Shown here: positions 20,699 through 53,500 of the stretch, one piece after another
Position numbering within the stretch: the first letter of the stretch is position 1
Layout: every line of letters starts with the position of its first letter
Made by a program: the position numbers and the translations under genes
The notes under the pieces: model-generated
Database searches by the model: none
What the model was told of the DNA's origin: nothing
The model's input: only the letters and a program-made list of their open reading frames with translations
IMG/VR virus record: IMGVR_UViG_3300031673_000041
Coordinates: 1-61,382 of that record
Origin: a virus
Strand: one strand, 5' to 3'
DNA length: 61,382 nt

Positions 20699-20861
20699 AA
20701 TAAAAGAAGAAATACTAAAGAAACTGATAGACAGAGCAATGAATGTTGCATATTTTGAAGGACTAAACGATTCAGACAGTGTTTCTTTTGATAAAATTGT
20801 TAATGAGCATAAAAATATTATAATAAATGCGATAAAGGAGGTCAACAATGAAAAAGATTGA
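20682..20861 (+). CDS. hypothetical protein (59 aa)
   Basis: SD GCAGGAGG upstream; below the track cutoff. Confidence 0.5.
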   Translation: MKNISEIKEEILKKLIDRAMNVAYFEGLNDSDSVSFDKIVNEHKNIIINAIKEVNNEKD

Positions 20862-25561: not shown

Positions 25562-26834
25562 TTTTGGCAATATAGCTCATTTCCGAAAGCCGCATGATAA
25601 GCAGGTAGAATTTATTGACAGTAAGGCGAAGAGGAAAATAATACGAGCAGGTAGAAGATCGGGGAAAACTGTTGGTGTTGCAGATTTAGCGGGTCGCCGG
25701 TTTATATATGATAAACAGCGCATATTATATGCTGCACCTACAGACGATCAGGTCAGTCGTTTTTGGCATGAAATAGTGAGTACATTTTGGGAGTTAATTG
25801 AATCGAATATATTATATAAAAATGAGACTAAGCATATCCTTGAAGTGCAAGGGACGGAACAGCGCATACGTGCAAAGACCGCCTGGAATGCTGATACATT
25901 GAGGGGGGATTATGCCGATCTTCTTATTCTTGATGAATGGCAATTAATGAATGAGGACGCATGGGGACTTGTCGGTGCACCAATGTTATTGGATAATGAT
26001 GGTGATGCAATATTTATTTATACGCCTCCGTCGATCAGAACAAGAAGTGTTACAAAGGCATACGATCCACAACATGCCGCTAAATTATTTAAAAAAGCGA
26101 AAGCAGATACTACAGGACGATGGGAAGCTTTTAGTTTTACCAGTCATGAGAATCCACATATCAGCGAAAATGCTTTGCAGGAAATAACACAAGATATGAC
26201 TTCTTTGGCGTATCAACAGGAAATAATGGCGGAGGATATTGAGGAAGTACCAGGGGCATTGTGGACAGTTGAAATGATTACAAAGGCATATATAGAAACA
26301 GCCCCAAAACTTAGGAAGGTAGTTGTTGGTGTTGATCCACAAGGGCGAAATATTAAATCAGCAGAGACGGGAATAGTTGTAATGGGACTTGGGGAAGATG
26401 ATTTGCATGGTTATGTATTGGCGGATAAATCGATCAATGCACGACCCGAAGGATGGGGAAGGCAGGTTGTAGAGGCATATCATGAATGGGAGGCAAATTA
26501 TGTCGTGGCAGAATCAAATTACGGTGGAGAGATGGTTGAAAGTGTTATCAAGGCAGTAGACAAAGACGTGCCCGTTAAATTGGTTCACGCGAGCAGGGGG
26601 AAGATTGTTCGGGCAGATCCGATTTCGGCAAAATACGAAAAAGGACTTATTCATCATGTTGGAAGTTTCCCCAAATTAGAAAATGAAATGTTAACATATA
26701 TAGGTGACCCAAGATGGAGCCCAAACCGATTAGATGCTTTAGTATGGGCAGGGACTTATTTAATGTTAAAGTATAGAGGACATTCGGACGGATTTATTTT
26801 AGTTGAAAGAGAAACAGAGGCGTTACCATTTTAA
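25551..26834 (+). CDS. terL: terminase large subunit
   Basis: Walker A AGRRSGKT, Walker B DLLILDEWQ, C-terminal RNaseH-like nuclease region (VVGVDPQG ... YVVAESNYGG ... D). Confidence 0.9.
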   Translation: MTDNFGNIAHFRKPHDKQVEFIDSKAKRKIIRAGRRSGKTVGVADLAGRRFIYDKQRILYAAPTDDQVSRFWHEIVSTFWELIESNILYKNETKHILEVQGTEQRIRAKTAWNADTLRGDYADLLILDEWQLMNEDAWGLVGAPMLLDNDGDAIFIYTPPSIRTRSVTKAYDPQHAAKLFKKAKADTTGRWEAFSFTSHENPHISENALQEITQDMTSLAYQQEIMAEDIEEVPGALWTVEMITKAYIETAPKLRKVVVGVDPQGRNIKSAETGIVVMGLGEDDLHGYVLADKSINARPEGWGRQVVEAYHEWEANYVVAESNYGGEMVESVIKAVDKDVPVKLVHASRGKIVRADPISAKYEKGLIHHVGSFPKLENEMLTYIGDPRWSPNRLDALVWAGTYLMLKYRGHSDGFILVERETEALPF

Positions 26835-29346: not shown

Positions 29347-30753
29347 ATGAAGCGCAAGACAAATCTTTTTAAAAGACTTTTTGGAAAACAATCAGCACAG
29401 CCAAAGACGGAAAACTCCTTGGCGCAGATTCGAGATTCATTCGCACATCCGTTCAGCGATATACTCGGCGGCTATATTGCATTAAATCATAATCTAAGAA
29501 TGTTCAAAATGATCCGGGAAGCCATCCCATTTATAAATATAGGAATTCTGAAGCGCACTAAATTAATCGGTGACTATCAGTTTGAAACGTATGGCAATAA
29601 TGCTCTGAAGGAGAAGTTGGACGACTTCAAGGATAAGATTAGAATCATTAACCAATTAACATCCGGGCTAAATACGTTCATAGCAGAGAACGCAGATTCC
29701 ACATTTGCGACCGGCTATTGTGCCAGTGAAATAGTTCCCACGAGAACGCTATCGGATGTGTACGGATTGAAGGTAGCGAATTCCGAAGATATTACATTTA
29801 TGAAAAACAAAGAGACAAAACAGCTTGAGCTTGCAATGAGATCCGATATACACTGGCAGCCAATTCCATTTGAAAATCAGGACTTGATTAATTATTTAGC
29901 ATTCGACCAAAGAGAGGGACACCCGCAAGGATATTCATTACTGTATGCGCTTCCATTTATTGCGCAGGTTATTATAACGATGGAGCAGTCATGGAAAAAT
30001 GCAACATGGAGAATCGGAGATCCCACCTATATTGGGATGGTTACTGCGGGAGATGAGGGTGATGATGAAGAGGCTACAAGCCTTAAAAATAGCTTAGCTG
30101 CTCAAATGAAGGTAGCAATGAAGGCAAGAAATCTTGGAAAAACATACGATATATTTGGTTCTATCAGTAAGGGCGGAAAGGTTGAGATTGAGACTCTTGG
30201 AGCAGATGGGGATGTATTGACAAACGAGATTCCAGTAAGGACATTGTTTGAACAGGTAATCGCAGAAATAGATATTCCGCCTCACATGCTTGGTGTATCA
30301 TGGTCGGCACGTCAAACAATGGCAAGAGAACAAAGTGATATGCTAATTTCAAATATTAAATCAGAGCGGAAGAAAATAAAAAACAATTTAGTTGGCAGGG
30401 TGATTGATACCTTTCTAATCTTAACAGGTGATGCTGGAAAAAAGTGGGACATTATTTGGGATGACGTTAATCTGATGGATGAAGAAAATCAAGCAAAGGC
30501 CGGTCTGTGGGACGCTACGAGAGTATTGAAAGTCATTGAAGCCACTGTTCAGTTATTGGAAATGGGTTTTACTGATCCACCTGGGGCGGAAGTATATTTG
30601 CAGGAAGAAGGAGTTCTCAAGGGGAAAGCTCCGAAGGGCTGGTACAAGTCATTTCAGGGACGCAGGATGGTGGAGCAAATGGCGTTATCATTTTATAATG
30701 AGCGGAAAAATGGGAAAGCGAAAAAGATCGTATTCCCAGTGAGTGTATCATAA
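29347..30753 (+). CDS. portal protein
   Basis: 468 aa, SD CAGGAGAG upstream. Its position is downstream of terL and upstream of the Mu-F-like head morphogenesis gene. The call rests on size and position. Confidence 0.7.
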   Translation: MKRKTNLFKRLFGKQSAQPKTENSLAQIRDSFAHPFSDILGGYIALNHNLRMFKMIREAIPFINIGILKRTKLIGDYQFETYGNNALKEKLDDFKDKIRIINQLTSGLNTFIAENADSTFATGYCASEIVPTRTLSDVYGLKVANSEDITFMKNKETKQLELAMRSDIHWQPIPFENQDLINYLAFDQREGHPQGYSLLYALPFIAQVIITMEQSWKNATWRIGDPTYIGMVTAGDEGDDEEATSLKNSLAAQMKVAMKARNLGKTYDIFGSISKGGKVEIETLGADGDVLTNEIPVRTLFEQVIAEIDIPPHMLGVSWSARQTMAREQSDMLISNIKSERKKIKNNLVGRVIDTFLILTGDAGKKWDIIWDDVNLMDEENQAKAGLWDATRVLKVIEATVQLLEMGFTDPPGAEVYLQEEGVLKGKAPKGWYKSFQGRRMVEQMALSFYNERKNGKAKKIVFPVSVS

Positions 30754-31724: not shown

Positions 31725-31906
31725 TTAAGCATATTTGCGATCAATGCAAACGAGAATGTCTTCCAAGCATAACAATGTCAATCAGTGGAGAGGATACTGT
31801 GGCAATAATAAATACATTATTCCCATGTCCAGAAGAACTAAAGGAATTTTGCTCGACAAATTGCTTTTGGGAATATATGAGAAAATATGACCCGGATAAT
31901 AAATAA
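31721..31906 (+). CDS. small zinc-binding protein (61 aa)
   Basis: ATGA overlap; CDQC ... FCSTNCFWEY. Confidence 0.55.
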   Translation: MIKHICDQCKRECLPSITMSISGEDTVAIINTLFPCPEELKEFCSTNCFWEYMRKYDPDNK

Positions 31907-32937
31907 TGTATGTAGGCACTGACGAAATATACGATGATGTGTTAAAGCACAATTCGCTGGTTAATGGATTAGTCATTCCAGACGACATGGCTTTTTGCGG
32001 TTACAAGACAACCACGCCGAGTTTCCACGAATTAGAACTTGCGAATCGCAAGCATCGATGGCCGGAGATGCAAAGTCTTCATATTGATTTTTTCAATAGT
32101 TTATTCCGTGAAGTAACCGAGGTTGAGGATGATATTTTAGCAGTATTGAATTTGCCAAAATTAAATGAAGTACGTGAATCGATCATGTATGAAGATGAAC
32201 AAGATATTGAAAGTGCGTTAAAGTTTAAGTATACTGGCCGAATGGAAAGGGAGCTAACAAAAGAATTTAATGAATGGATTGAGGAATTAATTGGAACAGA
32301 TTTAGCCAAAAAGGAAGTAACTCTACAGGAGGCGACCTATCCGTATTGGATGGTAAGCGCCGGATCTGTTGGATTGAAAAGAACACAGCAAAAGATCAGG
32401 CGATTAATCGGCGATAGAGTTTTTCCTGTTGTGAACAATGATTATCTCAGAGCGGTCATAACAAGAGGCGGGAGTAGAATTAAAACACGATTGGCTCTTG
32501 AATATCTTCCTATAGTCAGGAAGCATTTAAAAGTCATGGCTAAAGAAGGTCGCAATCCCATGCAAGTTGCCCGCTGGATTCATAAGAATGTTGGAGAGGG
32601 TCAGGCATGGTATTGGAATCGAATAGCGAGAAGTGAATCTGGGCTGGCGGTAAATGGAGCATATAACGCAAGTGCCGAGAGAAACAATATCCCTTATGAA
32701 CAATGGAGCGCAGCATCAGACGCTTGTCCGATATGCGCATATCTGGACGGGAGGATCTGGGAAAGAGGTAATGGGCCGGAGCCAGTATCATCCTCCCACC
32801 CTTTTTGCCGTTGCGACCGAAGTCCGATATTTGTTCCTGAAAAGTTAGTCGAACAACCGTGGAGACGTACAACACCATACGATAGAATGTACACTCCGCA
32901 GGAACTTGAATATTTTAGGGTCAATATAAATTCATAA
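31906..32937 (+). CDS. head morphogenesis protein, Mu F / SPP1 gp7-like
   Basis: TAATG overlap; WSAASDACPICAYLDGRIWERGNGPEPVSSSHPFCRCD is the Phage_Mu_F signature. Confidence 0.85.
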   Translation: MYVGTDEIYDDVLKHNSLVNGLVIPDDMAFCGYKTTTPSFHELELANRKHRWPEMQSLHIDFFNSLFREVTEVEDDILAVLNLPKLNEVRESIMYEDEQDIESALKFKYTGRMERELTKEFNEWIEELIGTDLAKKEVTLQEATYPYWMVSAGSVGLKRTQQKIRRLIGDRVFPVVNNDYLRAVITRGGSRIKTRLALEYLPIVRKHLKVMAKEGRNPMQVARWIHKNVGEGQAWYWNRIARSESGLAVNGAYNASAERNNIPYEQWSAASDACPICAYLDGRIWERGNGPEPVSSSHPFCRCDRSPIFVPEKLVEQPWRRTTPYDRMYTPQELEYFRVNINS

Positions 32938-33624: not shown

Positions 33625-34086
33625 ATGAATAGACGAGACTTTTTAAAGATAGTAGGTGCGACAGGTTGTATCGTTATTGCACCGTCTATAGCAATTTCTA
33701 AAAGGGCTGGTGAATATGATAAGATTGAAATTCTTTCGAGTATCCCAATAGATCATGTTGATATAAGTGCGCCGTGTCAGATTCGCTGTCTAAATGGTTG
33801 GTTGTGGAATATAACATATAATTATCCTAATGGCAGTGATTATGCAACAGCAACTCGTTGGAATCCATTTTGGTTGACGGGGGATTATATTGAAGAACAA
33901 ACCGGAATAAAATGTCTTTACGGGATTGGGATTAGACTTGAAAAAGAAAATCATTTAATTATTGTAAGTGGCGAAGATACTGGTAATGCTTATATTGTAG
34001 GCCATTATTCAAAATTATTAAAAATAAAACAGTTTCCAGATAAAATATTAAAAGAATTGGAAGGAGCCAAAAATGGGATTGTGTAA
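33625..34086 (+). CDS. protein with twin-arginine (Tat) signal peptide (153 aa)
   Basis: ATG after AGGAAG; MNRRDFLKIVGATGCIVIAPSIAIS = RRxFLK plus an h-region. Confidence 0.65.
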   Translation: MNRRDFLKIVGATGCIVIAPSIAISKRAGEYDKIEILSSIPIDHVDISAPCQIRCLNGWLWNITYNYPNGSDYATATRWNPFWLTGDYIEEQTGIKCLYGIGIRLEKENHLIIVSGEDTGNAYIVGHYSKLLKIKQFPDKILKELEGAKNGIV

Positions 34087-34605: not shown

Positions 34606-35535
34606 ATGAAGAAATTATCGTGGTATTTAAAACAGATTATTCCATTAACCTATTGGTCTGCATATGGGGTCGACAATAAAAGACAGGTTAGCATTTGGAA
34701 GATGTGGTTTGGGAGATGTTATAATGTTAGAATTTTATTGTTTTTGATTTTAATGATTCTAACAGTTACGGCTAAAGGTTTGGGACAGTCGGCACAAACG
34801 ACTTTAAATGAAATGTGGACAAATGATCCGTTTAATATTGGAATGGAAAGCGTGAGCGGTAAAACACCAGTTCGATTATCCGGCCACAATCACGCACTTG
34901 CGGCAACCGCCGAAGTGGTCGGTCACATATCAACTGTTCAGGGATATGTAAAACGGGGAACTATTCTTGCGATCAAGGCGGCGAGTGCAAGTGACGACAC
35001 ATCCGGAACAGGTATTCGATCTGTTAAGATTACTGGTTTGGATAGCTTATTTGCAGAACAAAATGAAACGATTATTTTGCAAGGTAGTGATTCTGTATTA
35101 ACTACAAATAAATATGTTCGGGTATTTTCAGTGGTAGCAATGACTGCTGGATCAGGCGGAGTGGCAGCAGGGGCAATAACAATAACAAGTTCCCATGCCG
35201 GAGCAGATACAAGTTTATTGTTAATAGTTACTGGAGAAAGTTCAGCACAATCAGCGATTTATACCGTGCCGGCAGGCAAGACATTGTACGTGGTTGAATT
35301 TCATGCGTCGTCAGCGACAGGAATATTACAGACCATAACTATTTTAAGTCGGGACAGAATCACAGATGAATCATATAGACCGTTTGTTGAAAAATTAGCA
35401 GGGCAAATTTGGCTATCAGCATTTCATTTACCATGTCCACTGCCGTTGGTTTTTGAAGCATATACCGATGTCGAGATTAGGGGAATTGGGAATACTGGGA
35501 ATATTGTTGCAGGACTATCTGGATGGATTGAATGA
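34606..35535 (+). CDS. N-terminally membrane-anchored beta-rich protein (309 aa)
   Basis: ATG after TTGGAGG. The track start at 34579 lies inside the terminator stem and is rejected. TM ILLFLILMILTVTA; the rest is Ser/Thr/Gly/Ala/Val-rich. Confidence 0.7.
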   Translation: MKKLSWYLKQIIPLTYWSAYGVDNKRQVSIWKMWFGRCYNVRILLFLILMILTVTAKGLGQSAQTTLNEMWTNDPFNIGMESVSGKTPVRLSGHNHALAATAEVVGHISTVQGYVKRGTILAIKAASASDDTSGTGIRSVKITGLDSLFAEQNETIILQGSDSVLTTNKYVRVFSVVAMTAGSGGVAAGAITITSSHAGADTSLLLIVTGESSAQSAIYTVPAGKTLYVVEFHASSATGILQTITILSRDRITDESYRPFVEKLAGQIWLSAFHLPCPLPLVFEAYTDVEIRGIGNTGNIVAGLSGWIE

Positions 35536-37837: not shown

Positions 37838-38962
37838 ATGAGTTTAATTTTAAATGGAGATCTTACCAAGCTGAAAAACCTTGGAATGGGAATGTATAAG
37901 GATGCCGTAGATGCTGGCAAACCTTTCAAAGTGTGGCTTGAAGATTACGTTGCAACCAAAGAGGGTGGAGGGTTTGAAACACCATATCGTGGATTGTCAA
38001 ACATGGAAACCTTCATGGAAATCAGGCGTATGAAAGCAGCCGGTGAAACTGTCCCAATGACCGCCTATGAGTTGGCTCTGGCCGCTCACGATATTAAGGC
38101 ATTCGGGTCGATCACTGACCCAGTTTCAAAGTTTTTCACAAATGCCAGTACATCTACATTGTTTCCAGAATTCATCGGAACCAGAATTTATACTGGCGCA
38201 ATCGTATCTGCGATCTGGCCGTTTTTCATGCAGGAAACAGTTAACATTACCGGATTAACTTTCAAGAAAATCTATCTCAATGATACTGCTCCTCAGAGAC
38301 AGGGTGGGCGTGTTGGTCGAGGTGGGTTGTTCCCGAAAAAGACTTTCACTGTCGGAGACGAGAGTGTGAATCTTGAAAAGTACGGTGTGGAAATTGAATT
38401 TGATTATGAGATTCTTGCAGATCAACCTCTTAACCTTTACGGTAAAGAACTTGAAAAAATCGGGAAACAAATCGGCGTCGATGAAACTGATGATATGTTT
38501 TACATCCTGGTCAATGGTGATGGAAATTCGAATGGACTCGAATCAGCTCAAACAGTATCTGCAGTAACAAGTGGATCGGTCTCAAAGCTCGATATTATCG
38601 ATCTTGCAACTGCTTGCCCAATGCCGTATAATCTGAATGTGTTTGCTGGCCCGACTGCTTATATGCGCCTGTATTGGGATGCTCTTTCTGATATGACGAA
38701 CCCGAACTTGCAAAAAGCTGAAATCCCCATACCGCTTCCAATGGGTTATAGATGGGATTCTGGTCAAATGTTATCCGTCACTGATCGATTTTACGGAGTC
38801 GATAAATCGCAAGCTATCTCTTATGTAACTAATGACGCAATGCTATTAACCGAGACAGACCGCATAATCAATAAGCAAGTTGTAACCACAGTCGTTAGCA
38901 AGAGAGGCATTTTTACAGTCAATACTCAAGATGCGATTGGGTGTCTTGATATTACCGCTTAA
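37838..38962 (+). CDS. major capsid protein
   Basis: 374 aa, SD AGAGAGG upstream, downstream of the protease/scaffold gene. The call rests on size and position. Confidence 0.7.
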   Translation: MSLILNGDLTKLKNLGMGMYKDAVDAGKPFKVWLEDYVATKEGGGFETPYRGLSNMETFMEIRRMKAAGETVPMTAYELALAAHDIKAFGSITDPVSKFFTNASTSTLFPEFIGTRIYTGAIVSAIWPFFMQETVNITGLTFKKIYLNDTAPQRQGGRVGRGGLFPKKTFTVGDESVNLEKYGVEIEFDYEILADQPLNLYGKELEKIGKQIGVDETDDMFYILVNGDGNSNGLESAQTVSAVTSGSVSKLDIIDLATACPMPYNLNVFAGPTAYMRLYWDALSDMTNPNLQKAEIPIPLPMGYRWDSGQMLSVTDRFYGVDKSQAISYVTNDAMLLTETDRIINKQVVTTVVSKRGIFTVNTQDAIGCLDITA

Positions 38963-39001: not shown

Positions 39002-39295
39002 ATGAATAAATTACGAGTAAGAGTTACGGAGCCACTGATTAGGGTCGATCTTGACGATAATGTTCTCGATGTTTCTCATAAGATGTTTGAGAAAGACCCG
39101 AAAGCAGTCTATGAGGTTCCTGATACAATATTCTGGCGAAGGTTAGAAGAGCCGGGAAAGATCACTAACAAGAAACCGTTACTGGTCAGGGTTGGAAGGG
39201 TCGCCGCTTCTGATGAGGAAGATGAGATCGAAGATACCAAGCCTACTCCCAAACCTAAGACCGAGGGTGTTCGCCGAGAAAAGGGAGGTAAGTAA
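39002..39295 (+). CDS. hypothetical protein (97 aa) with an acidic then basic tail
   Basis: SD TAGGAGAG upstream; stop overlaps the start of the 992-aa gene (TAATG). Confidence 0.6.
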   Translation: MNKLRVRVTEPLIRVDLDDNVLDVSHKMFEKDPKAVYEVPDTIFWRRLEEPGKITNKKPLLVRVGRVAASDEEDEIEDTKPTPKPKTEGVRREKGGK

Positions 39296-42273
39296 TGCGT
39301 AAACTCTTTTCATTTATAATGGTCGTATTATTGCTGGTGATTGGTGTTTCCAGTACATACGGTCAGAATTTGCCTGCCACGATTACAAACAGGGCAACTC
39401 TCGCATTGTGGATTCGGACAGGCACATTTACATTCACAAATAAGACACTGACCAGCCCGACTATTAATGGCCTATCGCTTACTGGAACGATTTCAATTAC
39501 CGGAACAAGTTATCTGAATCTGGGTACGGCTCTGGTTCCACTGGTGTTAACGACTACGCCACTTTTTACGGTGTATTCGACATCGGCTTCGGTTGCTGGA
39601 ACAATCCGTTCAGCCATTATTAATCAGGTACACACCGGAGACGGATACGCGACTATAGAAGCGTTGAGAGTCAATGTCAGTTCTGCCGTCCAGACCGGAT
39701 CGTGGACTAATGCGATTGTCGCACGGATTGCGTACAGTGGAGCGACTGGCGATGCAGGCGGGGGTTTGGCAGCAGCACTTTGTGCTGAAGTTGTTCTTCC
39801 TGCGATTACCGGCCCAGCCGGTTCATACTTTGCCGTCGATCTTGAATTTGATGCACAGGCGAGTTATGTGGCAAATGCCGGAACCGGATACCCGACCGCT
39901 TATATTAGGTTTGGGTTATACGGCAATGGTTCTGCAATTGCATCCTTTGAGGATGACGCTTATTTCATGCAGATGTCAACCGACTTTTCAAGTGCTTCTG
40001 GAAATATGTGGTATAATAATACTTTGAGAGTACAACTTGAAACCACAGATTTTTTCATTGCACTTTCGGACGCAGAGGGTGAATATTCATCCGCTTATAT
40101 GATTGACATTTCTAATGCAACCAATGCCACAAATTTAACGACTGCTTCTATTGCAACCGAGGGTGGACTTGCCGTTACACTGGAAACTTTTCTTGGTGAT
40201 GATTTAGATATGTCCACTTCTGGAACTGGTGTTTACGACATCACATTAAAAGACAATGTGGCTGATGCTCTCAGTATTGTACGTGGTACAACGGATATGA
40301 TGGAATTCACTTCAACATCAGCTTCGCCGTTAATTACCATTACACCGGCGACCACAATTACTGGGCTGTTGACGGCAAACGGAAGCGTGGCAGTTGGGGA
40401 TGCTGATTATATCGGTATAACTTCAAATGAGGTTATCACTTTTGCGGTCGCAGGAACAATAACAGCTTCTGGTGCTGATTTTGTAATTGGTGAAACTGCC
40501 GCCGAAAACGTTCTCAGACAATTGAGGATAATCGGTGATGCTGATTCGGATGCTGGTGGAAATATCACATCGGAAACACTGACAATTGAATTGAATACCG
40601 ACGCAACGCCCACAAATTCAACTTGGGATTTCTCAAGTACACAGGGTGCAGGTTATGCGTTTGATAAGGCAGTGAGTGTAACTGGCCTGATCACTTCAAG
40701 TGCTGGGTTTGTTTTAGGTGATACTGATTATATTGGTATTACTTCGAACGAGACTATTTCTTTTTTAGCAGCTGGATCAATTACTGTTAATGGAGCAAAT
40801 TTTCTCGTTGGCCCGGTGACTGCATTAGATGAAGGCAGACCGACCTTTGCTATTGTTGGCGATGCAGACACTGATGGAACAGCAACAACTGAAGCATTAA
40901 CGTGGACGTTGGCCGGAAATACCGATCCTACTGCAGCGACTTGGGGACTTACGTCAACTCAAAGTGCCGGTTATACTATTGATAAGGCGGTAAGTGTAAC
41001 GGGTTTGGTTACGTCGTCGGCCGGTTTTGTTTTGGGCAACACTGATTACATCGGAATAACAGGCAATGAAATAATTACATTTACTACGGGTGGCACTATA
41101 GATTTTACTGGCGCACTTGTTACAATTGTCAGTCCCGATCTTGCAGCGGCCGCAAACAATGCTCTGATCATAACCGCAACGACTTCTATTACAACGGGTT
41201 CGAATTATGCGGTTGAAATTACCCACACCAATACCGCTGGTTCTGCTGCAAATTTTGCAGGTTTATTTGTCACGACTACAGCCGGAGCGGATTTCGCAGG
41301 TGCTATGGGTATTATGTCACGGGTTGATATGGGTGCATACGAGGGCATAGTTGGTGGAGCGAATGCTTTATATGCCGAGCTTTTATTGTCTAACAAAATA
41401 CAGACCGGCGGCGAGTATCATGTTCTTGTTTTGACACTTGCTGAAAGTGGAAGCACTTTTTCACCCAGTATTACCGTTACTCGTCCTACGACCTTCACGA
41501 AGTATGAAACTTGGGGTGATGGTGCTGAACACATAGACGATTATGCGTATCTGTTTTATCTGAACGGATTCACGGCAGAGGCAGGTCATTTAGTATCGCT
41601 CACAAAACAAACACTTCGAGTCAATATTGGTCAAGTAGCCCGTTATATGGTATTGAGTCAAATGCAGGACGGACTTGGTTTGGGTATCAGCGGAACACCG
41701 ATGGTATTGGCGGCAACTACAGATCAAGCAACTGAAATTTTTACAACCGGCTCGTCAACATCTGGTAATCATTTTCATAATTATATGAAGGCAACCAGTA
41801 CAGCACAAACTACAGGCGGTCATTTTGCTCTCTACGTAGAGAATGATGTGGCGTTTCAAGCAGCCGGACAAATGGGCGGTTATTTTAAAGTTGATATGAA
41901 TGCGATTCAGGCTCCCACGGGTGGCGCAAGTGTTGTCAATGCCGAACTGGTTATGCCGACCGGTGTACAGAACGGCGGACAGTATAACGCATTTGTAGCT
42001 GACATCGAATGCCCTGCAACCATGGATATGTTTTACAATGCTGCTATACCGTCTGGTTTTATGAAATTGGAAGTCTATGGGAATGGTACTGCTGTGACTG
42101 ACTTTAACTTAAGTGCTAATCTATTTAATTTGAGTGGTATTACTGCAGCGACAGATGCAATGCTTGAAGAAACTACAGTAGCGGATGCAAATGTTAGTAT
42201 AACTCATTCAATAAGAATTAATATTGGTGGAACACCGTATTACATAGCTTTAAATACAGCTAACACTTGGTAA
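39295..42273 (+). CDS. large Thr/Ser/Ala/Gly-rich repeat protein with a signal-peptide-like N-terminus (992 aa)
   Basis: MRKLFSFIMVVLLLVIGVSSTYGQ. About 2.4 tandem copies of a ~106-aa unit (G[DN].DYIGIT.NE.I.F). Three dispersed copies of a second unit (AE[VL][VL][LM]P...YGNG[ST]A). Confidence 0.8.
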   Translation: MRKLFSFIMVVLLLVIGVSSTYGQNLPATITNRATLALWIRTGTFTFTNKTLTSPTINGLSLTGTISITGTSYLNLGTALVPLVLTTTPLFTVYSTSASVAGTIRSAIINQVHTGDGYATIEALRVNVSSAVQTGSWTNAIVARIAYSGATGDAGGGLAAALCAEVVLPAITGPAGSYFAVDLEFDAQASYVANAGTGYPTAYIRFGLYGNGSAIASFEDDAYFMQMSTDFSSASGNMWYNNTLRVQLETTDFFIALSDAEGEYSSAYMIDISNATNATNLTTASIATEGGLAVTLETFLGDDLDMSTSGTGVYDITLKDNVADALSIVRGTTDMMEFTSTSASPLITITPATTITGLLTANGSVAVGDADYIGITSNEVITFAVAGTITASGADFVIGETAAENVLRQLRIIGDADSDAGGNITSETLTIELNTDATPTNSTWDFSSTQGAGYAFDKAVSVTGLITSSAGFVLGDTDYIGITSNETISFLAAGSITVNGANFLVGPVTALDEGRPTFAIVGDADTDGTATTEALTWTLAGNTDPTAATWGLTSTQSAGYTIDKAVSVTGLVTSSAGFVLGNTDYIGITGNEIITFTTGGTIDFTGALVTIVSPDLAAAANNALIITATTSITTGSNYAVEITHTNTAGSAANFAGLFVTTTAGADFAGAMGIMSRVDMGAYEGIVGGANALYAELLLSNKIQTGGEYHVLVLTLAESGSTFSPSITVTRPTTFTKYETWGDGAEHIDDYAYLFYLNGFTAEAGHLVSLTKQTLRVNIGQVARYMVLSQMQDGLGLGISGTPMVLAATTDQATEIFTTGSSTSGNHFHNYMKATSTAQTTGGHFALYVENDVAFQAAGQMGGYFKVDMNAIQAPTGGASVVNAELVMPTGVQNGGQYNAFVADIECPATMDMFYNAAIPSGFMKLEVYGNGTAVTDFNLSANLFNLSGITAATDAMLEETTVADANVSITHSIRINIGGTPYYIALNTANTW
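40399..41150 (+). repeat. in-frame tandem repeat, period 318-321 nt (2 full units + 1 partial)
   Basis: Unit starts align at 40399 (GAT GCT GAT TAT ATC GGT ATA ACT), 40720 (GAT ACT GAT TAT ATT GGT ATT ACT) and 41038 (AAC ACT GAT TAC ATC GGA ATA ACA). Confidence 0.85.
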
Positions 42274-42296
42274 TTGTAATATTTAACCGGCTTATC

Positions 42297-42331
42297 GGGG
42301 ACTGTGCCGACATAAACAGTCCCCACTTTTT
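42297..42331 (+). terminator. rho-independent terminator after the 992-aa gene
   Basis: GGGGACTG (42297-304) pairs with CAGTCCCC (42317-324), 12-nt loop, then ACTTTTT. Confidence 0.75.
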
Positions 42332-42351
42332 AAAAAGAGGAGATACGAGAA

Positions 42352-42735
42352 ATGATTAAAAAAATCATGTTAACAGTGGTGATGTGCTTTGTATTTGTCG
42401 GATCAATTCACGCAGAAGTAATCGAAGTAAACACGATGGAGCGAATGGTATTATTGTCCTTGTTGCCAGTGGAAGCAAGTTACGCTACTTGGAAAATTAT
42501 TCAAGAACTACGAATGGAGTTGTCTTTCACGGAAGAGGAACTTGTTTTAATTGATTTAAAACCCGATGTGAATGGTAATACAACGGCAAATTGGGAGGCA
42601 GTCGATCCGAAGTCAGTTGAATTCGGAGTTACCGCAGCAAGATTTATAGAGGATGCCCTTCTTGCTTTAGACGAACAAGAAAAACTATTACCAGAACACG
42701 TTAGTTTGTATGAGAAATTTATTGTGAAGGAATAA
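42352..42735 (+). CDS. secreted protein (127 aa)
   Basis: SD AGAGGAGA upstream; signal peptide MIKKIMLTVVMCFVFVGSIHAEV. Confidence 0.65.
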   Translation: MIKKIMLTVVMCFVFVGSIHAEVIEVNTMERMVLLSLLPVEASYATWKIIQELRMELSFTEEELVLIDLKPDVNGNTTANWEAVDPKSVEFGVTAARFIEDALLALDEQEKLLPEHVSLYEKFIVKE

Positions 42736-43007: not shown

Positions 43008-43763
43008 ATGATGCAGCTTATCCATTCAAGTGGTACAGAATTTTTCAGTAAAATATTTACTGTAATGTATAATCTGAAAAACGTAAATAAATACGGTTAT
43101 AATTCATATGAGCCATGCTTATTTTATGGAATGTATTTCAATGAAGATTCTATACGGTTAATGGAGCATAGGGGACAGGCGATTATATTATGGGCTGGAT
43201 CGGATATTAGAAGTAAGGGTCAACCATTTATTACAAAAAATACACCTACCAAAGTTTTGCATTTGGCAGCATCTCCATCGATTGAGCAGAGATTAAAAAG
43301 GGTAGGATTTTCATATCGCAGAATCCCGAACATTGCATTTACAAATTGGGATTACTGGAAACCCGAACCGCTTGGTGAAAAGATTTATTTCTATGCGCCG
43401 TCCGATTTTTATGGTCTTAACTGTCTTGACCAGATTAAAGAATTTGGTTATCCGGTTATCCATATTGATCGAGCGCAGAGACACGACATCTCAAAACTAC
43501 GCAACATTTATAAGGAATGTTTTATTGGGTTGAGATTAACACCGGAGGACGGAAACTCTGCAACGGTCTTAGAGATGGGATTAATGGGAAGGAAGACTAT
43601 CTGGAATGGCGACCAGTTGTCGGCTATACCGTGGAATGATTTTGATAAGCTCAATGAATTAATTTGCGTGGAAGCAAAAAAGATCGGAACAAGTCAAGAT
43701 GCTTTTGCAAAAAAAGTTTATGATTCAGTTACTAAGACAACCGAGGGGTGGTTTGATGTATAA
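43008..43763 (+). CDS. glycosyltransferase-like (GT-B C-terminal half-like) protein
   Basis: FIGLRLTPEDGNSATVLEMGLMGRKTIWNG resembles a GT-B nucleotide-sugar-binding segment; weak by-eye call. Confidence 0.35.
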   Translation: MMQLIHSSGTEFFSKIFTVMYNLKNVNKYGYNSYEPCLFYGMYFNEDSIRLMEHRGQAIILWAGSDIRSKGQPFITKNTPTKVLHLAASPSIEQRLKRVGFSYRRIPNIAFTNWDYWKPEPLGEKIYFYAPSDFYGLNCLDQIKEFGYPVIHIDRAQRHDISKLRNIYKECFIGLRLTPEDGNSATVLEMGLMGRKTIWNGDQLSAIPWNDFDKLNELICVEAKKIGTSQDAFAKKVYDSVTKTTEGWFDV

Positions 43764-43911
43764 ATTAATAATAGGTTTTTTGTTGTTTATTTTATTGTCT
43801 TGTACTTACAATCCAAACATTCAAGATAATTCTATATGCGAGCATAGACAGACAAAGGTATCATGGGATGGTATTGAACGATGTTTGCAATGCGGGGCAA
43901 TAATTGAATGA
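43756..43911 (+). CDS. small lipoprotein-like, Cys-containing peptide (51 aa)
   Basis: MYKLIIGFLLFILLSC (lipobox-like LLSC), then CEH...CLQCG. Its start overlaps the upstream stop and its stop overlaps the radical SAM start (ATGA). Confidence 0.45.
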   Translation: MYKLIIGFLLFILLSCTYNPNIQDNSICEHRQTKVSWDGIERCLQCGAIIE

Positions 43912-44687
43912 ACAGTCCGAACTTATTGAAGATTGAAACAACTGACAAATGTAATTCGGAATGTGTTTTCTGTCTACATCGAAAACATGCAGGGCACGAT
44001 ATGGACTTTGATCTATTTAAAAAGATAGTCGATATGTTTCCGGATGCGCAGACTGTTTCACCTCAATTTTTCGGAGAGCCTACAATGTATCTGCAATTAC
44101 CAGAAGCGATTCAATATGCAAAGGATGCAGGGAAAAGGGTAAACTTTTATACAAACGGATCTTTTATTTATGGCAATATGGTATCGGTGGCGAGCGCAAA
44201 ACCGGATCATATCATATTCTCGGTCGAGGCAGACAATAAAGAACTCTATGAAAAGATAAGGGTCGGACTTAATTGGAGCAGATTCTTGTTTAATCTTGAT
44301 GCAATGCAGGAATTCTGCACAGACACAACTATTACAATCAGGATGACAATCTGCAAAGAAAATCAGAATCGGATTGGAGAGATTAAAGCATTCTGGCAAG
44401 ACAAGGGATTTTATGTTGTGGCAGTTCCGGAGGCTCCCATAAAAAGATTTAAAACAGATAAATATAACAACTATAAATGTGATCGACCAATGAGACAGTT
44501 AATTGTAAAATGGAATGGCGACGTGGTTTTTTGCTGTGTTGATTTATGGGGAAAATATGTAATAGGTAATGTCAAGAATGAGGGGGAGTCAATTTGGATG
44601 AATAAAAGATTTAATGAATTAATAAAAACAATTAATACGGAAGACGCCCCAACTTTATGTTTAACATGTGGATTTCGGACAAGATAG
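43908..44687 (+). CDS. radical SAM enzyme with partial SPASM (twitch-like) domain
   Basis: CNSECVFC (CxxxCxxC). C-terminal CDRPMRQLIVKWNGDVVFC fits C-x9-15-G-x4-C, then CLTC. At 259 aa it is BtrN-like in size. Confidence 0.8.
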   Translation: MNSPNLLKIETTDKCNSECVFCLHRKHAGHDMDFDLFKKIVDMFPDAQTVSPQFFGEPTMYLQLPEAIQYAKDAGKRVNFYTNGSFIYGNMVSVASAKPDHIIFSVEADNKELYEKIRVGLNWSRFLFNLDAMQEFCTDTTITIRMTICKENQNRIGEIKAFWQDKGFYVVAVPEAPIKRFKTDKYNNYKCDRPMRQLIVKWNGDVVFCCVDLWGKYVIGNVKNEGESIWMNKRFNELIKTINTEDAPTLCLTCGFRTR

Positions 44688-44698
44688 AAGGAACGACA

Positions 44699-45247
44699 AT
44701 GGGACAAGAACAAAATAGTCAATTTTACAATAATATATACGATTCGGTTTTAAGTTATCAACATCACTATGCCGACAGTTTGTATTATAAACTGTGGCAA
44801 GAATTAAGTAAATGGATTGAACCAGACATGAAAATCATTGATCTTGGTTGTGGGTCGGGGCAATTAGCAAATCTTTTATACGATATTGGGATCAAAAATT
44901 ATATTGGGATAGATTTTAGTCAGACTGCAATTGATATGGCAAATAAAATTAATCAAATTAAAACATTCCAATTTATTTGTGCTGATTTTAGAACTTGTCC
45001 GATTCCCGAAGGTGACACTTATATGTTATCAGAAGTGCTTGAACACGTTCAAGATGATCTTGAATTATTAAAGAAAATTCCTGATAATAAACGGATTATT
45101 GCCAGTGTTCCAAATTTTGATTGTTCAGGACATGTTAGATATTTTTTAAATGAAAATAGTGTTAGTAAAAGATATAATAAAATTATCAATATTGAATACT
45201 TATATAATGTTAACAATAAATTTTTTGTTTTTATAGGAAAAAATTAA
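44699..45247 (+). CDS. class I SAM-dependent methyltransferase
   Basis: IIDLGCGSGQLAN (motif I), IGIDFS, YMLSEVLEHV. Confidence 0.8.
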   Translation: MGQEQNSQFYNNIYDSVLSYQHHYADSLYYKLWQELSKWIEPDMKIIDLGCGSGQLANLLYDIGIKNYIGIDFSQTAIDMANKINQIKTFQFICADFRTCPIPEGDTYMLSEVLEHVQDDLELLKKIPDNKRIIASVPNFDCSGHVRYFLNENSVSKRYNKIINIEYLYNVNNKFFVFIGKN

Positions 45248-45290: not shown

Positions 45291-46352
45291 ATGAAAAAAC
45301 CAACTATCGCATACGTAACACAGCACAATTGTTTAAGAGTAACTAAGGAGTCGGTTTGTTTAATTGATCTCGGCTACAAGGTGCATTTATTGTCACAAGT
45401 AATGACCAATAATAGACATTATACCAGTCCTCACCAATGGATACAACTATCGGATTTTGAAGAGACTGTCAAGCTGATGGATAAAAGTATTGACATCTGG
45501 CACGTTCATAATCATCCGAACTGGTTTGCATCAAAGATTAGAGAACTACTTCCAAAGTCGAAAATTGTATTCGATTATCACGATTCAAATTATTGGTTTA
45601 TTGATCAGAGCCCTCTACATAATACGAGCGAATTAACGACATGGTATACAGAGGATATCGCAGTCAGATCCGCAGACGCTTTTATTGTCCCGTCTGAAAA
45701 GTGCAAAGAAGAACTCCGGACACGAACAAGGAAGCCGATTAGGGTGGTACCGCCCGCCGTTCCGATTGCGATGTATGCGAATACGGAATGGAATGTATGG
45801 GGCGGATTAGTATCAGCTGGCGGCCATGCAACTGCATCTCGAAAGGGAGTTTTTCAGCATAATTCATGGCGGGATTACGGAGAACTTTACAAAGCATTGC
45901 AAGGGAAGCGAAAAGTCTTTGCATACTCTCCGTCATTTAATTTGGTCGAGAATGACAAGGTCGCTCAATATTATATGAACATGGGTGTCTCACTGAATAG
46001 ATTTAATTATCCGGATTTGATTGACAGGATTGGAGAACATACATGGAATCTGGTTGGGAATTTAAAACATACGAAAGTTATGGATTATATGGCTCCAAAC
46101 AAATTCTATGATGCAATCGCCGCAGGAGTTCCAAGCCTTGTATTGAACGCAGAGAGTGTCGGTAATCTTGTGGAAAAATACGGGATCGGAATTTATATTA
46201 AAGGTGATGATACGGATTATATTATTGACCAGATTATGAAACGATGGGAAGAACACCACGAGAAAAGATATAATCTAATAATGAAACGCAGAAAATTCTC
46301 AATGGAAAATTATATTGGACAAATAACCAGGTTGTATGAAACAATATTATAG
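45291..46352 (+). CDS. glycosyltransferase, GT-B fold (GT1/GT4-like)
   Basis: SD ACAGGAGA upstream; two-lobed pattern; APNKFYDAIAAGVPSLVLNAESVGNLVEKYGIGIYI resembles the GT-B C-terminal donor site. Confidence 0.6.
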   Translation: MKKPTIAYVTQHNCLRVTKESVCLIDLGYKVHLLSQVMTNNRHYTSPHQWIQLSDFEETVKLMDKSIDIWHVHNHPNWFASKIRELLPKSKIVFDYHDSNYWFIDQSPLHNTSELTTWYTEDIAVRSADAFIVPSEKCKEELRTRTRKPIRVVPPAVPIAMYANTEWNVWGGLVSAGGHATASRKGVFQHNSWRDYGELYKALQGKRKVFAYSPSFNLVENDKVAQYYMNMGVSLNRFNYPDLIDRIGEHTWNLVGNLKHTKVMDYMAPNKFYDAIAAGVPSLVLNAESVGNLVEKYGIGIYIKGDDTDYIIDQIMKRWEEHHEKRYNLIMKRRKFSMENYIGQITRLYETIL

Positions 46353-46852: not shown

Positions 46853-47325
46853 GCAACCAGACGAGATTGTTGAGTTGGTTATTAAGTAATCCGTTGTCCG
46901 AGTCGGCAACTATGAGCGTTATTACCGGGACTGCTTGCCCGTGTATGGCTTTTGGTAGAGCTGGATCTTATTCGGAAGAATGGCACAGAAAAAACTTGTC
47001 CGATGAGGATTGTCTAAGCACCGGCATAATCGATCCCAGTAAAACAACGACATCCACAACATTCAAGGGCATATTCTGTCCTCCTGCATTAGTGGCTTCT
47101 TCTGTTCCGACAGGACAAGAAATATTAGCTGCGATTGGTGAGATTCGGGACGATGATTTATTATTATGGGGAGCGGTCAATACCAGCACAAATGCAATTG
47201 TAGACTTCACGGGTACAAATGAATACATTGAATATATCACAAGGGATTCTATTAAATATTCGATTAAAAACGCTTATGAGATCCCGCAAATTTGTTCAGC
47301 CGCACATCTTAGGAGGCAAGCATAA
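46849..47325 (+). CDS. head-tail joining protein candidate (158 aa)
   Basis: TTG start overlapping the upstream TGA, with GGGGAG 9 nt upstream. Confidence 0.45.
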   Translation: MSNQTRLLSWLLSNPLSESATMSVITGTACPCMAFGRAGSYSEEWHRKNLSDEDCLSTGIIDPSKTTTSTTFKGIFCPPALVASSVPTGQEILAAIGEIRDDDLLLWGAVNTSTNAIVDFTGTNEYIEYITRDSIKYSIKNAYEIPQICSAAHLRRQA

Positions 47326-47756
47326 TGAATCCTTCAATGTATGGCGGTCAGTCAGTGTCCTATGTCGATCCTACTGGAATGCACATGAAATTGAGAGCCG
47401 TTAAGTTGGTTATGGCAGAAACTATTCCGCCCTTGGTATTAAAGGAAGCGCAGGAAGTTTTTAGGGAAGCCAGAAAAAACCTGTCCGGCCCGAAATCCAA
47501 TACTGGGAAAATGCCAGTTCCGAGAGTAACCGGTACACTGGACAGGGCATTAACATTAACTCCGGTCAGTCCTTCTGTGGCCGCAATTTGGATGAATAGG
47601 GTGATCGCCTACTATGCACCCTATGTTCATGATGGAACAAGATATATGGATGGTCGACCTTATTTGGCCATGGCTATTCGCACACGCAGACCGATTGCGC
47701 AAGCGAATTTCCAAAGGGCATTATTGCAGGCAGTGAGAGGAGTTGGGAGAAGATGA
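47325..47756 (+). CDS. HK97 gp10-like head-tail/tail-completion protein
   Basis: TAATG overlap; VIAYYAPYVHDGTRYMDGRPYLAMAI matches the gp10 family pattern (YA.yVe.GT..m.arPfl). Confidence 0.7.
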   Translation: MNPSMYGGQSVSYVDPTGMHMKLRAVKLVMAETIPPLVLKEAQEVFREARKNLSGPKSNTGKMPVPRVTGTLDRALTLTPVSPSVAAIWMNRVIAYYAPYVHDGTRYMDGRPYLAMAIRTRRPIAQANFQRALLQAVRGVGRR

Positions 47757-50556: not shown

Positions 50557-53500
50557 ATGGGTATGTTTACTGGACTCACTGGTGGTGGCGTAGGGGATAT
50601 TGTAGGGTTTGTAAAATTTTCCGGAATAGACCAAGCGAATGCGGATCTCGACAGGCTGAACGCAAAAGTTAGTAATGCCAGTCAAGTAATGAACAAGACT
50701 CTTAATATTACCATGCTCGCTGGGGCAGCAGCGATGGGAGCGGCCGCCATTGCATCTATTAAGTTTGAATCAGCATTTGCCGGAGTTACTAAGACAGTCG
50801 AAGGACTCCGTGACCCGATGGGTAAACTCACCGCAGAGGGTGAGGCAATGGCTAAATCCATTCGGGGCATTTCTCTTGAGACACCCATCGCAGTTGGTGA
50901 ATTAGCACGAATCGGAGAACTTGGTGGACAGTTAGGAATAGCAAGGGGCGACTTAACTTCATTCATTGACACTATTTCAAAAATAGCCGTAACAACAGAC
51001 TTAACTATTGAGTCAGCTTCGACAGACATGGCTCGGTTTGTCAATATCACAAAACAGGTTGCCCCAGAAGGCATGACGGCAGCGATGCAGATTGAACGAC
51101 TTGGTTCTACCGTTGTTGATTTGGGAAATAATTTAGCCACGACAGAATCAGAAATTCTATCAATGGGTATGAGGTTAGCGGGTGCAGGAAATCAGATCGG
51201 ATTATCGCAAGCTGAAATACTTGGATTATCAGGGGCATTATCTTCTGTTGGTTTAGAAGCACAAATGGGCGGTACTGCTATTTCTAAGGCAATGATTGAA
51301 ATGGCTAATAGTGTCGCTGTAGGTGGCCCAAAACTCGAAGCATTTGCAGATGCAGCCAGAATGTCATCGGATGAATTTGCTAATTTATTTAAAGAAGATG
51401 CAGCCGCAGCAATCACGGCATTTATTACCGGGCTTGGAGATGTTAGCGAAACAGGTGGAAATACTTTTGCTGTTCTTGAAGATTTGGGATTTTCAGAAAT
51501 CAGGCTTCGGGATGCTTTATTGCGAGCCAGTTCCGCAAGCGATTTATTCTCAAAGTCTATACAGATGGGATCGGATGCCTATGTAGAGAATAACGCTTTA
51601 AATAAGGAAGCAGCGCAACGATTTGGAACAACTGAATCACAATTAAAGATATTAAAAAATATTATTGTTGATACGTTTATTTCTATTGGCAATGACTTTG
51701 TTCCCGTATTGAATGATATGTTGACCGCATTTAATCAGCATCCGGAAGCGATTCAATCTGTTATAAAGGTATTGGGAAAAGCTACTATTGCAATAGGGGG
51801 GCTCGCAGTTGCAACAAAAGCCTATTTATTAGTGGCTAAATTAGCAGGTATAAATACAGCGGGATTTGCAGCGGCATTCGGCCCTATCGGTCTGGTGATT
51901 GCCGGAGTCACAGTCGCTATGGCTGCTCTCAAAGAGATTAATGATAAATATTATGCTAAGCAGATTGAAACAATACAAGCAACCAGTGATGAAATAGAGG
52001 AAATGGATGCACTTGCAAAAATCATCGGTGAATCGGAAAAGGTCACAGTAGACGTATGGAGAGCGCAAGAAGATTTTGAGGAAGCATTGCGCAAGGTCGG
52101 TATTGAAGCGAATGTAACAAGGGAGAATGTTCGTGAATTGAATGAGCAATACCGGAAGATGCGAGAGGAATCTATCAATGCACAGATTGCTGATTTAAAA
52201 ATAAAACTCGACTCATTAAATCAGAATCTTGGGGTTGCTGCTGGATATTTAGGGAACGTTTATAATAGTACCGATGAATGGGAGCGGAAATTAGCGGCAC
52301 TGGAAGCAGAGTTACTCGAACTCAATCCACCACTTGAAGAAACGGTTACAAATACCGATGAACTCGCAGGGGCAATGGAAGACGAAGCATTAGCAGTGAA
52401 AGCATTAAATGATCCCTTTGCAGAGATGCTAAAAACAATGGAGGATGGTGTCGAACCGATACAGTCATTGAGAGACCAGTTCCATATAATTAAAGAGGAA
52501 ACGGCGTTATGGTCTGATCAAATCAAGGGAGTTCCGGGCAAGATTGTTGACGTAGGTACAGCTGCTGATGGAGCAAACAAACCGCTTGAATATGAGGTTG
52601 GGTTGTGGGGGCAATTAGTCCATGAGATAAAAACAGGAGAGGGAACATTAGTAAAGGATGCTGCATTAGTTTTTAACATAGCTGGTAAATTAGGGATATT
52701 TAACGAAGAAACAAAAACAGCGATTGATAAAACTGTCAGTTTGGTTGCCAGTTTTAATACCCTTAGCACTACAGGGCAGATATTGAGCGGTATTTCGCTT
52801 GGGATAGACTTACTGTCGTATGGTTATGATTTATTGTTTGGAAGTGCTGAAAGAATACCAATGACCTTAGAAGATGTTACGGCTCATTTTGATACAATGG
52901 GTATATCCATTGATAATATTCAGGCTAATCTTGAAGCATTAAATGCAGAATTTAATTTACCAGTTTTGGAAAAGTACGGACAGGATTTAGCATACGCAGT
53001 TGATCAAGTTGTATTGCAGGAAAGTTTAACCGGATCATGGGCTATGCGGGTTGAAGAATTGACGATAGCTATTGGCAAGTTGAGTGGGGCATTTAATTTT
53101 ATGACTCTATTCGACGAAGCAGTTCAGGGATATAGTGCTTTTAATGATGAGATTGAACGGATGTTTGTTTTATTTGGTGGTGGCTTAGCTCCCGGAACTG
53201 ATCCTGCTGGATTTGCAGAACTGTTAACAGGTAGTATTATTTCACTTGGGGTTGAGATGTCAAGGGTGCCAGTAGATTCAGAGGCATGGAGGTTGTTAAA
53301 TGCTGAATGGATGGAAAGTCGGCAATCATTGACTGATTTGGCAACTATGTATCCTGAAGTATTGCAATATCTTCAAGATCATGCCGTATATGGTCAAGAC
53401 TTAACTTGGATGTTAATAGAGGAAACGGTGGCAACCGATGCTTTAAGTGTTTCGACAAAAAGGGTTATAAAATCTACTGGGGAGAGTGCGGCTGCGGTTG

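Follow-up and report, generated by a model that had tools for sequence, protein, structure and literature searches.

We analyzed the IMG/VR virus record IMGVR_UViG_3300031673_000041 over its whole length of 61,382 nucleotides (hereafter, the window), and in particular a gene at 39295-42273 (+ strand) encoding a 992-amino-acid (aa) protein. Our leading reading, which we hold tentatively, is that this protein is a long, probably trimeric, modular fibre of the head module that would be exported through the general secretory (Sec) pathway, along with a chaperone-like partner, and would meet the capsid only when the envelope is breached. The evidence lies in the anatomy of the protein, its placement beside capsid genes, the size of its domain family, export signals that vary together on fibre and partner, the residue following the predicted cleavage site, and a depletion of host glycosylation motifs.

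The fibre gene and its expression signals

The open reading frame (ORF) was found exactly as the original prediction had it, and the protein is as rich in Thr, Ala, Gly, and Ser as was claimed (14.5%, 12.7%, 10.5%, and 7.7%; 45% together). Ser and Thr make up 22%, and there are only 2 Cys. The gene had also been ranked as the second largest, but it is the third, behind the 1426-aa tape measure (50557-54837) and a 1036-aa ORF (55239-58349). It does follow the major capsid protein (MCP) gene, which opens a run of MCP gene, 97-aa ORF, and fibre gene. The features of this region are listed below, with predicted cleavage sites marked by a slash; labels beginning with L (homologue loci) and P (fibre homologue proteins) are those of this analysis.

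37838-38962, + strand: MCP gene, HK97-fold, Phage_capsid_4 type (PF25209, 6.2e-8; phrog_3922, 8.8e-36)
39002-39295, + strand: 97-aa ORF between the MCP and fibre genes, its stop overlapping the fibre start (TAATG)
39295-42273, + strand: 992-aa modular fibre gene (ORF, composition, internal repeats, domain X profile)
39295-39363, + strand: Sec-type signal peptide, aa 1-23, from its n-, h-, and c-region anatomy; predicted signal peptidase I (SPase I) site TYG/Q, alternative VSS/T
39364-39522, + strand: mature N-terminal peptide, aa 24-76, NLPATITNRATLALWIRTGTFTFTNKTLTSPT..., kept in P0004, P0008-P0010, and P0017
39523-40080, + strand: domain X copy 1, aa 77-262 (hidden Markov model [HMM] E 1e-76)
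40105-40380, + strand: neck module, aa 271-362, TDAS..T.GS..T.GG...LGDDxDMS.SGTGVYDITLKD..ADALSIVRGTTDMM.F...ITITPATTITG
40393-41022, + strand: two full tandem stalk units, R1 (aa 367-470) and R2 (aa 474-576), 55% identity, E 2e-33
41029-41112, + strand: degenerate partial third stalk unit, aa 579 to about 606 (self-comparison)
41119-41670, + strand: domain X copy 2, aa 609-792 (HMM E 1e-56)
41686-42267, + strand: domain X copy 3, aa 798-991, the C-terminal tip (HMM E 9e-64)
42297-42331, + strand: intrinsic-terminator-like hairpin, 9-bp G+C-rich stem, 10-nt loop, then T5 (folding energy)
42352-42735, + strand: 127-aa partner with its own signal peptide, MIKKIMLTVVMCFVFVGSIHA/EV; homologues lie beside fibre genes

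Translational coupling to the 97-aa ORF, as originally proposed, is visible in the letters: the TAA of that ORF (39293-39295) shares one base with the fibre ATG (39295-39297), and a GGGAGG motif lies at 39283-39288, 7-12 nt 5' of this ATG. The 97-aa ORF has no Pfam or PHROG match and is unlike the small ORFs that hold the same position in other loci. The strong terminator said to close the gene was located as the hairpin at 42297-42331 (GGGGACTGT, the 10-nt loop, ACAGTCCCC, and T5). The 56-nt stretch bearing it (42285-42340) folds with a free energy (dG) of -18.5 kcal/mol (z -3.3), a stability that none of 200 shuffles equalled. A generic terminator scan overlooked the hairpin because its loop exceeds 8 nt, and neither Rfam nor Tandem Repeats Finder (TRF) gave matches on the fibre region. 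From these signals, the fibre gene is cotranscribed with the MCP gene, presumably late, and translationally coupled to the 97-aa ORF on a transcript that ends at the hairpin.

Modular architecture and the domain X family

Both kinds of repeat in the original prediction are present. The tandem units are R1 and R2 with the degenerate third copy, and the three dispersed units are copies of a ~185-aa domain, here called domain X, with 22-30% mutual identity (E 1e-7 to 6e-23), copies 2 and 3 sharing 30% (E 6e-23). The internal repeats appear to be old, as the stalk copies are too diverged for TRF to detect them at the DNA level. Each stalk unit has a DxDxD(G/A) motif (GDADSDAGG / GDADTDG), which we take to be the known calcium-binding pattern and thus a putative Ca-binding motif here. 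Stalk-unit copy number ranges from 0 to 9 among the relatives of the fibre.

We compared the protein with 34 metagenomic homologues, which have in common either the N-terminal ~360 aa or the neck module alone, with the other modules shuffled. The 92-aa neck module is the most widespread, occurring in 34 of the 35 proteins of the fibre set and at times in multiple copies. The mature N-terminal peptide, a candidate docking segment, is conserved in the relatives named in the list even where their downstream modules diverge. At the other end of the protein, the C-termini of P0002 and P0006 carry distal modules resembling carbohydrate-binding domains. A conserved proximal end with exchangeable distal parts has the look of the usual phage-fibre anatomy. 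Searches with the fibre against Pfam, PHROG, and PDB gave no match, nor did tblastn of 50,697 GenBank phage records.

In an exhaustive profile search of representatives, domain X was found in 933 clusters at E<=1e-3 and in 157 at E<=1e-30. A word-indexed profile search had yielded just 2 proteins; words of low complexity had probably crowded its candidate list. One hundred of the best matches were essentially without Pfam or PHROG annotation, sequence and profile searches gave no PDB match for the domain, and tblastn of GenBank phages with the partner and three signal-less domain X proteins gave nothing. By these comparisons, domain X appears to be an undescribed family. Many of its members are 200-450 aa long with one or two domain copies. 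An N-terminal hydrophobic segment is found in 36 of 137 domain X proteins, and the others begin with different short conserved peptides, e.g., MSFRGNLLRAGIDSDG...

Two further points concern the ends of these proteins. A Type IX secretion substrate was considered and rejected because the fibre has no C-terminal Por_Secre_tail (no Pfam match at E<=0.1) and ends in domain X. In P0026, P0027, and P0031, a highly charged N-terminal extension of 120-150 aa precedes the hydrophobic segment and an AXA site (...ILASVLVLAMCFIPASFA/ADTTDEA); the extension could reflect a type II topology with an internal signal-anchor, or else an upstream ORF that the gene call joined to the fibre.

Synteny with major capsid genes

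The position of the gene had suggested a head fibre or decoration protein, and synteny strongly backs this idea, as homologues directly follow MCP genes of several unrelated families. In the window and at least 15 loci, fibre homologues lie 0-2 genes 3' of MCP genes from at least six unrelated families, in a slot upstream of the adaptor and tail genes. The MCP families found beside the fibre are as follows.

PF25209/phrog_3922: window, L001, L003, L009, L012, L013
PF05065: L004, L030
SU10-type: L005
Mu gpT-type: L006
phrog_133/4523/371: L014
phrog_3437: L016
phrog_9953: L019, L022, L024
phrog_1005: L020, L026
phrog_25898: L028

Signal-less relatives hold the same post-MCP slot in L004, L026, and L028. 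One exception to the arrangement is L017 (2677-9515), where a signal-bearing fibre follows the portal gene and precedes scaffold-like and probable capsid genes. The mature N-terminal sequence type tracks the MCP lineage, and the neck and stalk modules cross lineages, a combination that is good, if indirect, evidence for a component attached to the head or neck. We found no docking peptide common to signal-bearing and signal-less fibres of phages with related MCPs, and no homology to described head fibre or decoration families in Pfam, PHROG, or PDB sequence searches or at significance in Foldseek. A tail fibre or receptor-binding protein was rejected as a reading, the fibre gene being upstream of the connector genes, Neck1 (47325-47756), and the tape measure.

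The same synteny, along with the established knowledge that tailed phages assemble in the cytoplasm, would also be expected of an ordinary cytoplasmic head or neck fibre. Its hydrophobic N-terminus would then be a capsid- or membrane-proximal anchor or an assembly tag, perhaps removed by the prohead protease. Signal peptides have been predicted on some phage MCPs, and cleavage by the prohead protease was proposed as likely for these (PMC10367356). We nonetheless regard this explanation as distinctly unlikely here.

A probable export signal that fits the Q-rule

The secretion-type N-terminus of the original prediction is borne out: MRKLFSFIMVVLLLVIGVSSTYG/Q has a +2 charge, a hydrophobic core of ~14-16 residues (Kyte-Doolittle [KD] 3.5-3.8), and small residues at -3 and -1. 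Its parts, MRK, FSFIMVVLLLVIGV, and SSTYG/Q, are those of a Sec/SPase I signal with heuristically placed sites. A hydrophobic N-terminus is found in 30 of 35 close fibre homologues, and 3 of the 5 exceptions resemble truncated gene calls. The objection named in the original prediction, that homologues might lack this segment, does not hold for the close relatives and applies only to distant domain X proteins. In the two distant signal-less domain X loci that have the partner gene, the signal of the partner is likewise absent.

Among 31 homologues with the hydrophobic segment, position -1 is occupied by A (20), G (6), or S (5), and the median core length is 14 residues. Glutamine stands at +1 in 12 of the 31, concentrated in the nearest relatives; [AGS]Q occurs at the predicted site in the window fibre and in most of these relatives (P0001-P0013, P0017, P0025). 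Other fibre subgroups have AXA-type sites without Q. A glutamine right after the SPase I site is the Q-rule described for Bacteroidetes substrates (PMC5837995). The fibre signal peptide is therefore probably no accident and has the appearance of a genuine export signal. The earlier remark that such a peptide is unexpected on a virion part assembled in the cytoplasm holds, and the paradox is sharper than first stated.

These same properties are difficult to fit to a cytoplasmic fibre with an N-terminal anchor. The A/G/S at -1, the short core, and the Q at +1 are features of host SPase I substrates rather than of a structural anchor. Moreover, a like signal is found on the unrelated partner and is lost from both proteins together, and a sequon depletion specific to the Q-type proteins (see below) is hard to account for. 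The signal-less homologues further show that the segment is dispensable for the remaining protein.

A partner protein with a co-varying signal

The 127-aa partner belongs to a family that follows fibres in nine independent loci and retains 34-43% identity across divergent phages. The family has 484 relatives; among its top 120 members, signal peptides occur in 117. Fibre and partner both bear signals in seven of the loci (window, L003, L019, L022/23, L024, L030, L031) and both lack them in the other two (L004, L028), where upstream in-frame stops rule out hidden signals. Mixed pairs, with a signal on the fibre or the partner alone, number 0 among the nine loci. Such joint gain and loss is most simply explained by a joint function in one compartment. 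For the partner, no match came up in Pfam, PHROG, or PDB, nor any homology to the fibre chaperones Tfa, gp38, and gp57. We view it as a candidate fibre chaperone or adaptor.

Fibre loci without the 127-aa family have a different small signal-peptide or transmembrane protein after the fibre (L005 13018-13308, L020 6287-6526, L006 6928-7353, L014 7360-7632). Those of L005 and L020 are 32% identical, and several analogous partner families may exist.

Depletion of O-glycosylation sequons

The general O-glycosylation motif of Bacteroidota is D[ST][AILVMT] (PMC8550257). The window fibre contains 0 of these sequons vs 5.9 expected, and its 15 N-x-S/T motifs are no excess over the 11.7 +/- 2.9 expected. 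Counts across the fibre and domain X proteins, by signal type, were as follows.

Q-type signal: 40 observed, 150.6 expected, ratio 0.27 (about 4-fold depleted)
Other signal-bearing: 95 observed, 163.5 expected, ratio 0.58
Signal-less: 238 observed, 267 expected, ratio 0.89

Control motifs in the Q-type group were at or above expectation (ratios 1.23-1.26), and the control E[ST][AILVMT] was at ~0.65 in the two non-Q-type groups. The depletion holds past residue 370 (24 vs 80.6) and in representatives <50% mutually identical (17 vs 51.4), and the rest of the window proteome is at expectation (43 vs 40.1). If real, it indicates periplasmic exposure in an O-glycosylating host and selection for an unglycosylated fibre. 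This is the opposite of the original prediction, in which the hydroxyl-rich fibre was the obvious candidate substrate for glycosylation, with a glycosyltransferase island said to be next to it. The GT4 gene of the island sits ~3 kb 3' of the fibre, with several ORFs between them:

43908-44687, + strand: radical SAM/SPASM gene (Pfam match)
44657-45247, + strand: methyltransferase gene (Pfam match)
45291-46352, + strand: GT4 glycosyltransferase gene (Pfam match)

A heavily O-glycosylated Thr/Ser-rich virion fibre modified by this island would be compatible with the other readings, and we find it highly improbable. Its high Ser+Thr content would be explained, and GT4 and methyltransferase genes lie immediately 3' of the fibre in L001, and a radical SAM gene follows in L009. 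Phage-encoded glycosylation of virion proteins is also known in mycobacteriophages. However, co-occurrence of island and fibre is confined to the phrog_3922 capsid lineage (window, L001, L009), and for most of the family no glycosyltransferase is encoded nearby. The cytoplasm is where GT4 enzymes act, but the fibre has an export signal and would seem to leave the cell interior unfolded. Together with the missing sequons, this leaves the substrate claim unsupported.

Directly 5' of this island, a 70-aa ORF (43699-43911) has a lipoprotein-like signal (...LLFILLSC, lipobox-like) and several Cys, and it overlaps the radical SAM/SPASM gene by 4 nt in an arrangement that resembles a peptide-maturation pair. 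A periplasmic anti-phage effector matured by a radical SAM enzyme has been described (PMC13128918).

Virion fibre or envelope protein

In the reading that we tentatively favor, fibre and partner would both be routed through Sec and cut by SPase I. The partner would aid folding or trimerization of the fibre in the periplasm or the wall space, a role comparable to that of the chaperones whose genes lie downstream of tail fibres. Only after the envelope has been opened by holin and endolysin would the fibre dock, through its lineage-specific N-terminus, on the filled capsid or on the neck, and the virion-borne fibre would serve as a reversible, glycan-binding adhesion fibre. It is a doubtful but still credible extension that a widespread class of tailed phages builds a virion part outside the cytoplasm in this way. 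An exported capsid-docking fibre and its chaperone would then be matured by SPase I (where the host follows the Q-rule, also by glutaminyl cyclase), would stay clear of host O-glycosylation sites, and would join DNA-filled capsids only at lysis.

Alternatively, both proteins could be exported to the envelope of the infected cell and never become virion parts. Their role could be, for example, masking a surface glycan receptor, so that superinfection is blocked and progeny are not lost on debris, or remodeling the envelope. The post-capsid slot would then only provide very high late expression or be the relic of a true head fibre. The Q-rule, the A/G/S at -1, the co-variation with the partner, and the sequon depletion all fit this scenario. 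A terminator directly after the gene suits highly expressed cargo of the capsid operon, and the variable carbohydrate-binding-like distal modules (P0002/P0006) recall receptor-binding proteins. Several further window proteins look exported as well, and Q-rule secreted proteins whose role is uncharacterized have been reported in Porphyromonas phages (PMC10367356). We take this scenario as the main rival to our reading but judge it rather unlikely. Morons do not normally keep one fixed MCP-adjacent slot over at least six capsid lineages, the signal-less homologues in that slot (L004, L026, L028) would lack access to the envelope, and the conserved lineage-specific mature N-terminal peptide would be left unexplained.

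Several observations weigh against a fibre that is exported and then joins the capsid. Docking after lysis would seem inefficient, and our literature search found no precedent for a Sec-signal-bearing, capsid-gene-linked fibre or for a Sec-exported virion component of a tailed phage. Export, cleavage at the predicted, heuristic sites, and presence in the virion are all inferred. That N-terminus type tracks MCP lineage might stem from vertical co-inheritance and not from physical contact. The sequon statistics take in related sequences, and the D-S/T dipeptide is itself low (0.42). Shine-Dalgarno motifs are found for 53 of 87 window genes vs 3 of 51 in Flavobacterium phage 11b, which argues against a classical Bacteroidota host. 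Structure prediction also gave limited help: the AlphaFold2 (AF2) model of the full-length fibre, from a 35-sequence alignment, had a predicted local distance difference test (pLDDT) score of 49.8 and no usable Foldseek match. The best Foldseek matches of the domain X model were HylP1/2 chains, at non-significant scores (E 0.25-1, template modeling [TM] score 0.41).

Comparison with known systems

The domain X model itself, built as a monomer from a 48-sequence alignment, is an extended chain with pLDDT 74. HylP, its best if non-significant structural match, is a streptococcal phage hyaluronate lyase with a triple-stranded beta-helix (PDB 2yvv, 2c3f), and in both proteins the extended chains are sensible only as an intertwined trimer. 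However, domain X has no sequence similarity to HylP and no sign of lyase activity. An intertwined trimeric fibre is thus plausible on the model.

The nearest functional kin are head fibres, such as phi29 gp8.5 and T4 Hoc, and fibre/chaperone gene pairs. Like phi29 gp8.5, T4 Hoc, and phage L Dec, the fibre is encoded by an MCP-adjacent gene, is fibrous or modular with variable distal parts, and would be expected to act as a non-essential adhesion accessory. By contrast, those proteins lack a signal peptide and are assembled cytoplasmically, and the fibre here has an export signal, an exported-looking partner, and no homology to them. Lambda Stf/Tfa, T4 gp37/gp38, and Mu S/U likewise combine a conserved N-terminus and shuffled distal modules with a small conserved partner gene next to the fibre gene. 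Here, however, the fibre gene belongs to the head module, well away from the tape measure and tail-tip genes, the partner is unrelated to known chaperone families, and both proteins carry Sec signals.

The Q-rule proteins of Porphyromonas gingivalis phages are similar in that predicted SPase I cleavage exposes a glutamine, implying a fit to export in a Q-rule host, but they are of uncharacterized function and were not described as capsid-gene-linked fibres (PMC10367356). Serine-rich repeat glycoprotein adhesins, with GtfA/B and accessory Sec, also pair a hydroxyl-rich exported fibre with a nearby GT4. This reading was rejected; the fibre is without short Ser-rich dipeptide repeats or accessory Sec genes and has an ordinary short signal and folded modules of ~105 aa and ~185 aa.

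Host range

The Q-rule suggests a host in Bacteroidota or a related Q-rule lineage. A Q-rule host outside classical Bacteroidota, e.g., among Ignavibacteria, could reconcile this with the use of Shine-Dalgarno motifs; Ignavibacterium has a Q-value of 77% (PMC5837995). No prophage copy turned up in two scans of GTDB genomes, and a further scan of viral contigs gave no match. We also found no isolate relative, as portal and MCP searches matched only unannotated faecal contigs and one Microcystis phage, giving no host.

In L031 (9498-10692), the fibre, partner, and adaptor genes are followed by Peptidase_C70/C39_2, YvrJ, and Hydrolase_2 (SleB-like) genes in a Firmicutes-style lysis region. This hints that some phages with signal-bearing fibres infect monoderm hosts. 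At least one of the AXA-type subgroups, that of L031, thus has Firmicutes-like lysis genes, which would mean that the module spans more than one host phylum.

Other features of the window

Gene order in the window is of the siphovirus type, with the large terminase (25551-26834), portal (29347-30753), Mu-F-like minor head protein (31906-32937), and MCP genes followed by the fibre gene, the radical SAM/methyltransferase/GT4 island, Neck1, and the tape measure. Every long ORF is on the + strand, GC skew is positive throughout, and cumulative skew rises monotonically. The G+C content is ~0.37 overall vs 0.44-0.45 over the capsid/fibre region. Different samples yielded this same ~61.4-kb genome, as 12 assembled contigs in total, indicating that it is probably a complete, recurrent phage genome.

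Of 110 ORFs, 13 have a strongly hydrophobic segment in the first ~70 residues, and at least five of these encode proteins that look exported. Classical signal peptides occur in two ORFs of the early/middle region, at 20848-21675 (275 aa, ...FFGLARG/QG) and 22796-23227 (143 aa, ...VSYSYA/GI). In the head module, a 153-aa ORF (33625-34086) has a start of the twin-arginine translocation (Tat) type, MNRRDFLKIVGATGCIVIAPSIAIS, with a PF10518 TAT_signal match that does not reach the Pfam cut-off (E 0.005). Tat export would be unusual for the product of a gene lying between those for portal and capsid. A 309-aa head-module ORF (34606-35535; phrog_8198) is strongly hydrophobic at ~aa 43-58, followed by GLG/QSAQ. 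This segment, with Q following the site, resembles another signal for export or anchoring, and the ORF lies just upstream of a 579-aa coiled-coil (scaffold-like) gene.

Significance

This analysis defines two large uncharacterized families, domain X (933 clusters) and the partner (484 proteins), which are outside Pfam, PHROGs, PDB, and the 50,697 GenBank phage records. The grading of sequon depletion by signal type provides a handle, from sequence alone, on the destination of a protein and on its host. At the least, the fibre/partner pairs make up a new and abundant class of late phage proteins that appear to be exported. A capsid-linked fibre/partner pair whose export signals co-vary, found in many lineages, challenges the view that tailed-phage assembly is entirely cytoplasmic. 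If our tentative reading is true, it would add an extracytoplasmic assembly step that is new for Caudoviricetes.

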